Assembly: GCA_022703625.1 (NCBI GenBank)
Contig: JAKLDH010000001.1
Location: forward strand, 12,157-76,156
Length of the DNA stretch: 64,000 bases
Direction of reading: 5' to 3'
From: Cyanobacteriota bacterium
GTDB lineage: Bacteria > Cyanobacteriota > Vampirovibrionia > Gastranaerophilales > UBA9971
The notes under the pieces are model-generated. The model did no database searches, was not told where the DNA came from, and saw only the letters and a program-made list of their open reading frames with translations. Position numbers and translations under genes: made by a program. Shown piece by piece: positions 4,288 through 46,428 of this stretch. Position 1 is the first letter of the stretch, and the number at the start of each line of letters is the position of its first letter.

Positions 4288-4463
4288 CGTTTCACGCTCA
4301 CAACCTTTATTAGTATTTAGTTACTTCCCAAATTTTGTATTTTCTACATAATTTAAAACTAGAGAAAAAAAAAATTTGCTTTTTAAAAAAATTATTTACA
4401 AAACTTAGCTCTTTAAATAAATATTATAATGAATAAATTAGTATTTAGCCATTAAGTAACGAT

Positions 4464-19746: not shown

Positions 19747-21069
19747 ATGAAAAAAGTAGCGTTACAAACCCTGGGATGCAGAGCCAATCAGCTTGAATCC
19801 TCAATAATAATCGATAAATTCTTGAAATTAGGCTGGGAAGTCGTTAATTTTAACAGTTTTGCTGATATTTACATAATAAATACATGCACTGTAACCGGAA
19901 AAAGCGACAATTCTTCTTTGTCTTTTGTTAGAAAAGCTAAAAAGATTAATCCTGCGGCAAAAATTATAATTGCAGGTTGCTATCCTCAGGTCGCCGCCGA
20001 AGAAATAGCCAAAATTCAGGACATTGATCTTGTTATAGGCAACGCAGAAAAACTTAACCTGCCTGAATTATTAGAAAAACATGATGTTTTTAATGAGAAC
20101 TCAGGCAAAATTTATGTTTCAGACATAATGAAAGAAGAAAAATTCAGGGACGAAACGGTTTTATCTGCTTCAGGAAGAGTAAGAGCAAATATTAAAATAC
20201 AAGATGGCTGCAATTACAGATGTTCATACTGCATAATCCCCTATGCAAGAGGAAAAAGCAGAAGCAAAGAGCTTTACGGAACAATTGAACAGATTAAACA
20301 AATTACAGACAAAGGTTTTAAAGAAATTGTCCTGTCCGGAATTCATCTGGGACAATGGGGACTTGATTTAAATCCGCAAAAGACGTTGTTAACGCTTTTA
20401 GAAGAAATTGAAAAAATATCGGAACTTAAAAGATTCAGGTTAAGTTCTTTAGACCCCATGGAACTTAATGAAGAAATGATAACCTTTCTTGCAAATTCCG
20501 AAAAGTTTTGCAGGCATTTGCATATTTCTCTTCAAAGCGGCAATAATGAAGTTTTAAAAAGGATGAACAGGCGTTATACCGTTGAATATTACTCTGAATT
20601 AATAAATTCCCTTGTTGAAAAAATCCCTTTTATAAATATAGGCAGTGATATAATAGTAGGATTTCCCGGAGAAACAGACGCTAATTTTGAAAACACTTAT
20701 GAAAACCTGAAAAAACTTTCTATTGGTTATATACATATATTTCCGCATTCCAAAAGAAAAAACACTCCTGCCGCCATAATGCGGGATCAGGTAGACGAAA
20801 AAGTTAAAAAATATAGAGCCGCAAGACTAAAAGCGCTTGCAGCGGAGAAAAGTCTTGAATTCAGAGAAAAACTTGTGGGTAATGAGTTTGAAATTATTGT
20901 GGAAAATACTCGTGATAAAAATACCGGACTTTTAAAAGGAATGACCGATAATTTTATTTCCACGCTGATTGCAGGAGATAATGAGTTAAAAAATCAGCTT
21001 GTAAGAGTAAAAATAACCTCTACTGATGAAAAAACTACTTTTGGTCAAAGCAATTCAAGCCTATATTAA
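19747..21069 (+). CDS. mtaB: MiaB-like radical-SAM methylthiotransferase (MtaB type)
   Basis: N-terminal UPF0004 'TLGCRANQLES...NTCTVT', radical-SAM 'CNYRCSYCIIP' and a C-terminal TRAM-like region. Confidence 0.85.
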   Translation: MKKVALQTLGCRANQLESSIIIDKFLKLGWEVVNFNSFADIYIINTCTVTGKSDNSSLSFVRKAKKINPAAKIIIAGCYPQVAAEEIAKIQDIDLVIGNAEKLNLPELLEKHDVFNENSGKIYVSDIMKEEKFRDETVLSASGRVRANIKIQDGCNYRCSYCIIPYARGKSRSKELYGTIEQIKQITDKGFKEIVLSGIHLGQWGLDLNPQKTLLTLLEEIEKISELKRFRLSSLDPMELNEEMITFLANSEKFCRHLHISLQSGNNEVLKRMNRRYTVEYYSELINSLVEKIPFINIGSDIIVGFPGETDANFENTYENLKKLSIGYIHIFPHSKRKNTPAAIMRDQVDEKVKKYRAARLKALAAEKSLEFREKLVGNEFEIIVENTRDKNTGLLKGMTDNFISTLIAGDNELKNQLVRVKITSTDEKTTFGQSNSSLY

Positions 21070-38890: not shown

Positions 38891-38970
38891 AATTTAAGCT
38901 ATTTTACATGATGAATTGCAAGTTCAGACCGTGTGAGAAATAAAATCTGATCCCTTAAAAAATATTAAAA

Positions 38971-44454: not shown

Positions 44455-44757
44455 ATGATTATAAAAGAATTTTCAAAACATCTTCAAAAATTTAATGCGG
44501 ATATTCCTGCTTTAATTATTCTTTCAAAATGGCTTAAAGAAAAAATTTCAAAAAAAGCGGAAAATAATGTTGAGAAAATTTTACAAAAAGAAATTGTTTT
44601 GTTAAAAAACAAAAGAGGTTTATTTTTATTGCTCGCTAAATCATCTTCAGGACAAAAACTCCTTGAATCCTTATATGAATTTGCTTTAAGTTATGATAAT
44701 TACAAGTTTAACAAGTGGTTGCATAAAATAAAGGCAAGCGATTTTATTTTAGAATAA
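44455..44757 (+). CDS. hypothetical protein (100 aa)
   Basis: Isolated ORF between repeats. No recognisable motif. Confidence 0.4.
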   Translation: MIIKEFSKHLQKFNADIPALIILSKWLKEKISKKAENNVEKILQKEIVLLKNKRGLFLLLAKSSSGQKLLESLYEFALSYDNYKFNKWLHKIKASDFILE

Positions 44758-44939: not shown

Positions 44940-45030
44940 TATTAATGACTTTTATTAAAATAAACAAATTTTAATTACCGGTTTTTTATTGTAAAATTTT
45001 ATAAAGGGCATGGATTTTTTTAAAACCTCC

Positions 45031-45196
45031 TGTAGAAAACTTGTGTAAAACTTGTATAAAAGTATGTTTTTTTTGTAGAAAACAATTGTAGATAAATATA
45101 ACCTTTGTAGAAAATTCTTTAGTTTTATACAAACTTTTAACAGGTTTTGCGCAAGCAAGATTAATAGTATAAGCGTATTTTATACTGTTTTCTACA
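45031..45196. other. putative chromosomal replication origin (oriC): DnaA-box cluster upstream of dnaN
   Basis: TGTAGAAAA at 45031, 45074 and 45106, and its complement TTTTCTACA at 45188. Variants are TGTGTAAAA 45042, TGTATAAAA 45053 and TGTAGATAA 45087. An AT-rich stretch at 45221-45297 follows. Confidence 0.6.
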
Positions 45197-45315
45197 GAAA
45201 AACTCTTCCCCTACTATTACTAGATAAATAAATTAATTTTTTAAATTATTATTTAGTAAGTAAAATGATTAAGGTGAAAGAAATTTTTTAAAAAAAGTTG
45301 AGGAGTTGTTTAAAA

Positions 45316-46428
45316 ATGAAATTTTCTGTTGAAAAAAATGTAATTAATAACGCTTTAAATATTGTTTCAAAAGCAGCTGCGGCAAGAGGAATACAACCGG
45401 TACTTTCAAATGTTTTAATAGAAACTGTTGAAAATAATCAAATAAAATTATGCGCAACTGATCTTGATATTTCAATTGAAATGAAAATTGCGGCAGAAAT
45501 TTCTGAAAAAGGCAGTATTACACTTCCGGCAAAAAAATTGAATGAAATAATTTCAAAATTATCAAATGAAAAAGTAAATTTTAATATTAAAGGTGAAGAT
45601 AATGTTGTTGAAATTAAATGCGGAAGTTCAAAATTTGATATTAAAGGCATTGCGGCGAGCGAATTTCCTGTTGTGGAATATCCTGAAACAGAAGATTATA
45701 TTGATATAGTTATTGAACCTTTATTAAAAGCCGTAAAGCAAACTATTTTTGCTACCGCTACTTATGATATGAATAATGTTTTAAGCGGAGTTTTCTGTAA
45801 AATTAATGAAAACACCCTTGAAATGGCGGCTCTTGACGGAAACAGACTGGCAAGGGTTAAAGAAGAAATAGAAAATATAGAAAATAAAAGTTTTTCTGTT
45901 ATTATTCCGTCGAGAACTTTAAAGGAATTTATGAATATTTTATCCGGCGTTGAAGATGAAAAAGTGTCAATAACAGTTAGAAACGGACAAATTTTGTTTA
46001 AATTAAAAGACAGATTTATAACTTCGAGATTAATTGAAGGTCAATTCCCTAATTATGAACAGCTTATACCTTTAAGCAACAATAAAAAAGCGACAATAGA
46101 CAAAAATAAACTGATGTCTACGCTTGACAGAGTTTCTACAATGGTTAACGAAAGAACAAATATAGTTAAATTTTCATTTAACAAGGATAATTTAAAAGTA
46201 ACAGCAGATACTCCTGATCTTGGAGATTCCTGCGACGAGTTATTGGTTGATTATAAAAACGAGAGTTTTGATATAGCTTTTAATTACAGATATATTCAGG
46301 ATTTTTTAAAAATAACCGAAACAGAAAATGTTGTAGTGGAGATGGATGGTTCTCTTTCAGGCGTTTTGTATAAATCAGAAGGGGAAAAAGAAGCTGTTTG
46401 TTTAATAATGCCTGTTCAGCTTAATTAA
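45316..46428 (+). CDS. dnaN: DNA polymerase III beta subunit (sliding clamp)
   Basis: 'MKFSVEKNVINNALNIVSKAA...PVLSNVLIE...LCATDLDISIE' beta-clamp pattern. 370 aa from the ATG at 45316 (GAGGAG upstream). Confidence 0.92.
   Translation: MKFSVEKNVINNALNIVSKAAAARGIQPVLSNVLIETVENNQIKLCATDLDISIEMKIAAEISEKGSITLPAKKLNEIISKLSNEKVNFNIKGEDNVVEIKCGSSKFDIKGIAASEFPVVEYPETEDYIDIVIEPLLKAVKQTIFATATYDMNNVLSGVFCKINENTLEMAALDGNRLARVKEEIENIENKSFSVIIPSRTLKEFMNILSGVEDEKVSITVRNGQILFKLKDRFITSRLIEGQFPNYEQLIPLSNNKKATIDKNKLMSTLDRVSTMVNERTNIVKFSFNKDNLKVTADTPDLGDSCDELLVDYKNESFDIAFNYRYIQDFLKITETENVVVEMDGSLSGVLYKSEGEKEAVCLIMPVQLN

Follow-up and report, generated by a model that had tools for sequence, protein, structure and literature searches.

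The stretch of DNA upstream of dnaN in the 64-kb window (the window being the whole stretch that was analysed) raises the question of whether a dense group of short repeats, with no dnaA beside it, marks the site at which the chromosome begins to replicate. The dnaN product matches all three β-clamp Pfam domains and is 100% identical to P0001, from a Gastranaerophilales metagenome-assembled genome; its close homologues all come from Gastranaerophilales or Melainabacteria, which are non-photosynthetic and form the sister group of the cyanobacteria. The region from approximately 44989 to 45297, which abuts dnaN, is considered to be the chromosomal oriC of this Candidatus Gastranaerophilales bacterium with a probability of roughly 0.85; the cluster is very probably a standard DnaA-type origin with a lineage-specific box, TTTTCTACA. 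The elements of this region (Table 1) exceed chance expectation, are unique in the window, occupy the same positions throughout the order and, in relatives, lie where the skew switches. No paper in the searched literature described an origin for uncultured Gastranaerophilales or paired TTTTCTACA with DnaA; the papers that contain both terms are, to judge by their titles, unrelated and feature primer-type sequences.

Ten 9-bp boxes lie within 45031−45196 (166 bp); four match the consensus exactly and six depart from it at one or more bases. The original prediction, an oriC next to dnaN, had placed exact TGTAGAAAA at 45031, 45074 and 45106 on the + strand and its inverted form TTTTCTACA at 45188, and these coordinates and counts were borne out; the variants that it listed at 45042, 45053 and 45087 are also present, but its description of them as differing by a single base does not hold for TGTGTAAAA, which is two substitutions from the consensus. 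Boxes F1 (TTTTATACA), F3 (TTTTATACT, 45178−45186) and the degenerate F2 had escaped it, as had the spacing of R1−R3 at 11-bp intervals and the DnaA-trio element at 45211−45222. Its remaining observations on the surroundings stand: dnaN follows the boxes (45316−46428), mobile repeats flank the cluster, gene orientation does not flip cleanly there, and the AT-rich tract is real, with 88% AT over 45223−45297 against 65% for the window.

Table 1. Features of the putative origin region and its two flanking genes (window coordinates; conservation values from the seven-genome alignment)
Feature	Position	Strand	Conservation	Remarks
orf100	44455..44757	+		100-aa gene left of the origin, unannotated
Left-edge block TTGTAAAATTTTATAAAGGGCATGGATTTT	44989..45018		majority fraction 0.84 (0.58 further left)	conserved
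Boxes R1−R3, TGTAGAAAA ct TGTGTAAAA ct TGTATAAAA	45031..45061	-	0.95, 0.86, 0.89	0, 2 and 1 mismatches; 11-bp register
Box R4	45074..45082	-	0.97	exact
Box R5, TGTAGATAA	45087..45095	-	0.86	1 mismatch
Box R6	45106..45114	-	0.83	exact
Box F1, TTTTATACA	45123..45131	+	0.90	1 mismatch; box orientation flips from here
Box F2, TTTTGCGCA	45145..45153	+		degenerate; conserved TTAACAGG before it
Tandem pair F3−F4, TTTTATACT g TTTTCTACA	45178..45196	+	F4 1.00	adjoins the unwinding site
Spacer	45197..45210	+		14 nt, ends in G/C cluster CTTCCC
Four DnaA-trios	45211..45222	-	0.92	+ strand CTA CTA TTA CTA (CTACTATTACTA)
AT-rich tract	45223..45297			presumed DNA unwinding element; 88% AT, 45223−45262 93% AT
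15-mer TTTAGTAAGTAAAAT	45252..45266		0.95	possible dnaN −10 region
dnaN	45300..46428	+		DNA polymerase III β clamp; RBS GAGGAG 45300−45305, ATG 45316

Exact copies of TGTAGAAAA/TTTTCTACA number six in 64 kb where 1.28 are expected, a count reached in none of 100 shuffles; four of the six fall in the cluster, and the other two are at 4340 and 56997. Six boxes of the form TTTT[CGA][TA]ACA occur in 200 bp, against a maximum of three in 300 first-order Markov simulations built from the window. The general DnaA-box consensus is TTWTNCACA (PMC7561715), from which TTTTCTACA departs, by inspection, at position 6 only. The Mackiewicz definition of an oriC, quoted in the same paper, is at least three DnaA boxes with a mean spacing below 100 bp, and the ten boxes lie within it. 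A distance of 120 bp separates the end of the cluster from the start codon of dnaN, a replication gene adjacent to it. Boxes R1−R3 are 9-mers set 2 bp apart that read TTTTCTACA on the − strand, and box F4 is unchanged in all seven aligned genomes. The position homologous to F2 is occupied by TTTTGAACA or TTTTCTACA in relatives; F3 has two mismatches in the window, while the F3−F4 pair is TTTTATACAcTTTTCTACA in L008 and L002.

That the cluster is a chance low-complexity feature of an AT-rich intergenic stretch, or part of a mobile repeat, can be given almost no weight: the genome is indeed AT-rich and repeats lie 85 bp to the left of the cluster and 50 bp past dnaN, but the shuffles and simulations exclude chance, and the cluster lies outside both repeat families, which also led to the rejection of a mobile-element origin, and is kept at dnaN in dozens of genomes. 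An integrated plasmid or phage origin was likewise rejected, as there is no rep gene nearby and the position at dnaN is conserved. Three independent assemblies agree over the 1-kb region with 100% identity.

The first repeat family is an interspersed element of ~179 nt (43434−43612, 44767−44945, 60503−60606 on the − strand and 14466−14509) with two perfect G+C-rich hairpins, GGCGTAGCGGCTGGC...GCCAGCCGCTACGCC and ATGTGGCTCGCAGGC...GCCTGCGAGCCACAT, and 28-nt terminal inverted repeats; through these hairpins and termini it resembles a MITE. One copy stops 44 bp before the left block of the origin. The second family, of ~200−250 nt and carrying GGGGGTTCGGGGGCTTGCCCC, is found at 38958−39128, 43629−43877, 46480−46691 and 47991−48193 (− strand). 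Contig breaks in other assemblies coincide with the two families around the locus, and two of these assemblies break inside copies of the ~179-nt repeat. Just downstream of dnaN an N6/N4 DNA methyltransferase gene (46912−47784) is bracketed by inverted copies of the GGGGGTTCGGGGGCTTGCCCC family and is missing from the 17 relatives' loci inspected; its absence there and the inverted copies around it give the region the look of a repeat-bracketed inserted cassette. At the far left of the window a Mu-type transposase gene (rve and Mu-transpos_C domains; 756−2885, − strand) adjoins a tRNA-Ile(GAT)/tRNA-Ala(TGC) pair (3604−3795, − strand), the usual site of which is the rRNA spacer; no rRNA gene was detected in the 64-kb window. 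Rfam and tRNA scans of the window returned five tRNAs only, none of them at the origin site.

Between the boxes and dnaN is found what is predicted to be the unwinding module, which sits at the dnaN-proximal edge of the cluster. As described in PMC8287927, the basal unwinding system consists of a DnaA box with three or more DnaA-trios (3'-NAN-5', consensus 3'-GAT-5') no further than 16 bp away, and the trios are expected after a G/C cluster and before the AT-rich unwinding element (PMC7561715). Here the trios read 3'-GAT GAT AAT GAT-5' on the − strand and start 14 nt past box 45188−45196; trios, G/C cluster, AT region and tandem box pair, the sequence elements of the basal system, are all present. 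The pattern of a box, 8−18 nt and at least three [CT]TA trios occurs once in the window, with 0.01 occurrences expected. DNA stability in the region is lowest in the 40-mer that begins at 45215, which lies within the top 0.09% of the window. A scan for sigma-70 promoters and terminators gave no terminator in the region and, on the + strand, no promoter anywhere from the boxes to dnaN; the conserved TAAAAT at 45261−45266 is only a candidate −10 element.

Conservation was examined in 80 dnaN loci from one DnaN-alignment scan of GTDB genomes, all apparently from Gastranaerophilales. When 9-mers were counted without bias in the 500-bp segments preceding dnaN at 66 of these loci, TTTTCTACA proved the most enriched, at 63-fold; these segments, 32 kb in total, contain 126 copies spread over 45 loci, as opposed to 65 in the 1.07 Mb outside them. 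Next in enrichment is TTTTGAACA (45-fold, 109 copies in 39 loci), which shares aligned positions with TTTTCTACA, including the trio-adjacent box in some lineages, and differs from it in two central bases; examples are at 9901 in L030, 4375 in L058 and 9863 in L064. Box density has a median of 7 per kb upstream of dnaN, against 0.45 per kb in the rest of these loci, and the layout common to the relatives is a reverse-box array, often phased at 11 bp, followed by forward boxes, spacer, trios and AT tract; up to five boxes stand in a 10−11-bp register. Searching the window and the relatives (1.25 Mb) for the module pattern gave 35 matches, with spacers of 12−17 nt (mostly 12−15), and 27 of the 35 are on the dnaN strand no more than 1.5 kb upstream of dnaN. 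The conservation is not uniform, as boxes are sparse over the 1 kb preceding dnaN in about a quarter of the loci, and in some relatives the cluster is 1−2.3 kb upstream.

In an alignment of seven genomes with DnaN proteins 68−80% identical, the boxes score 0.81−1.00, the trios 0.92 and the 15-mer 0.95, whereas the spacers score 0.60−0.71. The box next to the trios does not vary and the trios hardly do, while spacers and gene neighbourhoods have diverged, which points to purifying selection. In L008, the closest relative, a ~200-nt insertion with a G+C-rich core (~9850−9990) lies between the AT-rich tract and the dnaN RBS, and the origin thus appears to tolerate insertions on its dnaN side. Gene order within 10 kb on either side of dnaN differs between the window and L008, L001, L002 and L004 despite 72−80% DnaN identity.

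Nucleotide skew locates the origin in the family rather than in this genome. A regression from which the coding-strand effect was removed was applied to 37 relatives' loci that extend 8 kb or more to either side; the side effect, when pooled, was +0.041 ± 0.004 for GC and −0.028 ± 0.006 for AT. The side effect was positive, which is the sign expected of an origin, in 35 of the 37 loci, and the best-fit switch point fell between 0 and +1 kb relative to the dnaN start. In the window there is no replication-side GC switch at 45 kb (β −0.007 over the whole window and 0.003 within ±10 kb); per-gene regression with a scanned switch point leaves only a coding-strand effect (α ~0.10), and the sliding skew profile tracks gene orientation only. 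L008, the closest relative with long flanks, likewise has a side effect of about zero (0.008). As neither the window nor L008 has a switch, skew supports the assignment at the level of the family and reaches this genome by homology alone; its absence from the window is uninformative rather than contrary. The divergence of gene order around dnaN fits frequent rearrangement, which may be why this clade lacks the skew signal. The origin reading, which in the original prediction depended on the box cluster, is supported, the cluster now being joined by four independent lines of support.

The same data bear on the possibility that the origin has been retained but is no longer used, with replication starting independently of DnaA and oriC at dispersed sites. 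Such replication is described for Synechocystis PCC 6803 and Nostoc PCC 7120, where it is accompanied by irregular skew (PMC7198777), and the skew that is absent from the window and L008 is present in more distant relatives. An unused origin would, however, be hard to reconcile with the purifying selection on the proximal box and trios across the seven genomes; moreover, 64 kb is too short for a weak skew to be excluded, and the interspersed repeats suggest rearrangements that would erase it. Disuse is therefore regarded as very unlikely, and an origin in service at dnaN is preferred.

The location of dnaA provides a further test of the assignment. The original prediction that none lies nearby is confirmed for the window, where neither tblastn nor the large ORFs checked revealed one; the gene is absent for 45 kb upstream and 18 kb downstream of the origin by tblastn with B. 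subtilis DnaA, a query confirmed by alignment to PDB entry 8btg. The window thus has the cyanobacterial type of arrangement, with the origin beside dnaN and dnaA elsewhere. A protein search for the dnaA of this genome gave only DnaA proteins of more distant Gastranaerophilales, and a metagenome scan with generic patterns gave mostly those of other phyla and none from samples carrying the genome; as this dnaA is unlocated, a second cluster could lie beside it. In the relatives dnaA is within 10 kb of dnaN in nine of the 80 loci (tblastn). L019, L021, L025, L026 and L032 display the classical arrangement, with dnaA upstream of dnaN and the TTTTCTACA cluster between both. In L018, L020, L025, L026 and L032, of the lineage with dnaA near dnaN, the box and trio module is on the opposite strand and faces dnaA; this module has a 12-nt spacer and TTA-rich trios. 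Ten dnaA loci without a nearby dnaN have 0−2 boxes near dnaA and no unwinding module, and dnaA loci away from dnaN lack an origin-type skew switch (four loci from three lineages).

These results weigh against the view that the cluster only regulates dnaN transcription or titrates DnaA while the true origin is elsewhere. DnaA-box clusters other than oriC are known, for example in Bacillus subtilis (PMC3245932); the presumed promoter region of dnaN overlaps with the cluster and the window has no skew switch, all of which would suit such a role. The phased box pair, G/C spacer, trios and extreme AT tract would nevertheless be needless for regulation, yet they are conserved; the skew switch maps to dnaN in relatives, and none of the ten dnaA loci has another cluster beside dnaA. 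A purely regulatory or titrating cluster is accordingly considered very unlikely; regulatory and origin roles are not mutually exclusive.

The initiator itself differs in this order at the motif expected to read the box. The DNA-recognition motif RDHTTV[IL]HA of B. subtilis and E. coli is, to our knowledge, near-universal among DnaA proteins, whereas 119 of 120 Gastranaerophilales DnaA sequences (P0121−P0240) feature KKH[PT]T[IMV]L[FY][SA]. When the residues of E. coli DnaA that contact bases (listed in PMC7561715, which cites Fujikawa 2003) are compared, R399 and H434 are kept in Gastranaerophilales; in 9−10 aligned sequences D433 is replaced by K, T435 is P or T, H439 is Y or F, and P423 is V or E. 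An altered reading head together with an altered box is what co-variation would predict. A broader proposal, that Gastranaerophilales have a re-specified initiator-origin code together with a lineage-specific accessory protein, is tentative and on balance doubtful; under it the box sequence may have changed to TTTTCTACA (variants TTTTGAACA and TTTTATACA) as three base-reading DnaA residues were replaced, and the product of orf100 may act as an origin-binding or initiation-control factor.

The gene orf100 matches no Pfam or NCBIfam family; its own family comprises 122 cluster representatives at an E-value of 1e-3 or better. In 39 of 62 relatives (e.g., L011 8929−9219 and L027 9327−9644) the gene immediately preceding the boxes is orf100, in the same orientation as dnaN, although other neighbours are not conserved; L027, L046 and L023 all have orf100 directly upstream of boxes and dnaN, and in L027, representing one lineage, dnaA lies upstream of orf100 to give the order dnaA, orf100, boxes, dnaN. 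The AF2 model (pLDDT 92.6) features three helices, a β-hairpin and a long helix; compared with the PDB it has no significant fold match, the weak matches being to MarR, PadR, RTP and DnaD-N with a best E-value of 0.24, and the protein may be winged-helix-like.

This neighbour gives rise to a further reading in which the 9-mers are iterons for another protein, such as the orf100 product, instead of DnaA boxes. The frequent presence of orf100 beside the cluster and the helix-helix-helix-hairpin order of its model, with matches among MarR, PadR, RTP and DnaD-N, would agree with a DNA-binding partner of this kind. Rich clusters are nonetheless found in L008 and L016, which have no orf100 within 10 kb; TTTTCTACA is a single substitution from the general DnaA-box consensus, the geometry from box to trio is specific to DnaA, and the fold matches are insignificant. 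Iterons are thus considered highly improbable, and the 9-mers are taken as DnaA boxes in what follows.

A mechanism can be proposed in which DnaA would bind the site, the AT tract would unwind and the origin would be used in this genome. DnaA would occupy ten 9-bp boxes of consensus TTTTCTACA, six on the − strand (45031−45114) and four on the + strand (45123−45196); strong boxes would be filled first and phased weak ones after, giving two opposed DnaA assemblies. The tandem pair at 45178−45196 is predicted to set an ATP-DnaA oligomer onto the − strand trios, 14 nt away, and the stretched − strand would lead to opening of the adjoining 93% AT tract, where the helicase would be loaded and from which forks would depart both ways. 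Transcription of dnaN would lead outwards from the origin, starting at a promoter that probably shares sequence with the unwinding region.

If correct, this assignment provides a concrete sequence-level definition of oriC for Gastranaerophilales/Melainabacteria. The signature of TTTTCTACA boxes and CTACTA trios upstream of dnaN could serve to anchor metagenome-assembled genomes, to fix the zero point of skew and of growth-rate (peak-to-trough) estimates, and to seed origin finders that now use the wrong box. Some members have dnaA, orf100, oriC and dnaN in this order and most have dnaA elsewhere; the separation known from cyanobacteria thus occurs, in part, among their non-photosynthetic sisters too. 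The altered DnaA motif beside an altered box presents a testable case of initiator-origin co-variation; the origin is otherwise of an ordinary kind and does not overturn current understanding.

Among known systems, oriC (incC) of B. subtilis and oriC2 of C. difficile have, like the region described here, a box pair, a short spacer ending in G/C, trios and an AT tract, and their module is placed directly before dnaN and is oriented in the same way. The string of trios here, CTACTATTACT, matches the start of the B. subtilis trios. It is also close to the C. difficile string CACCTACTACTATTACTACTATGA (PMC7561715) and fits the search definition of PMC8287927. The differences are that the B. subtilis and C. 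difficile box is TTATCCACA and the consensus here TTTTCTACA; that the stronger box is here nearer to the trios, with a 14-nt spacer that contains no second box; that dnaA is not adjacent; and that this locus gives no evidence of DnaD/DnaB-type helpers.

The oriC of Synechococcus elongatus PCC 7942 is beside dnaN with dnaA elsewhere (PMC7198777), and the parallel with the cyanobacteria drawn in the original prediction agrees with this literature. The S. elongatus-type cyanobacterial box is TTTTCCACA (PMC4674748); both it and the box here are T-rich at position 3, but position 6 is T here and not C, and TTTTCCACA is absent from the cluster, its only copies in the window being at 20898 and 37374. 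Unlike S. elongatus, some Gastranaerophilales keep dnaA next to the origin; the DnaA of the order has KKH[PT]T where B. subtilis and E. coli have RDHTT.

The likeness to E. coli oriC lies in the opposed box sets, the 11-bp register and an origin set apart from dnaA. E. coli oriC has two opposed sets of DnaA sites, the weaker of which are 2 bp apart (an 11-bp register). It is also separated from dnaA (PMC8287927). The region here differs from it in having no evidence of IHF or Fis sites, no GATC clusters and other neighbouring genes, and its unwinding module is far nearer to the Firmicute pattern than to that of E. coli.
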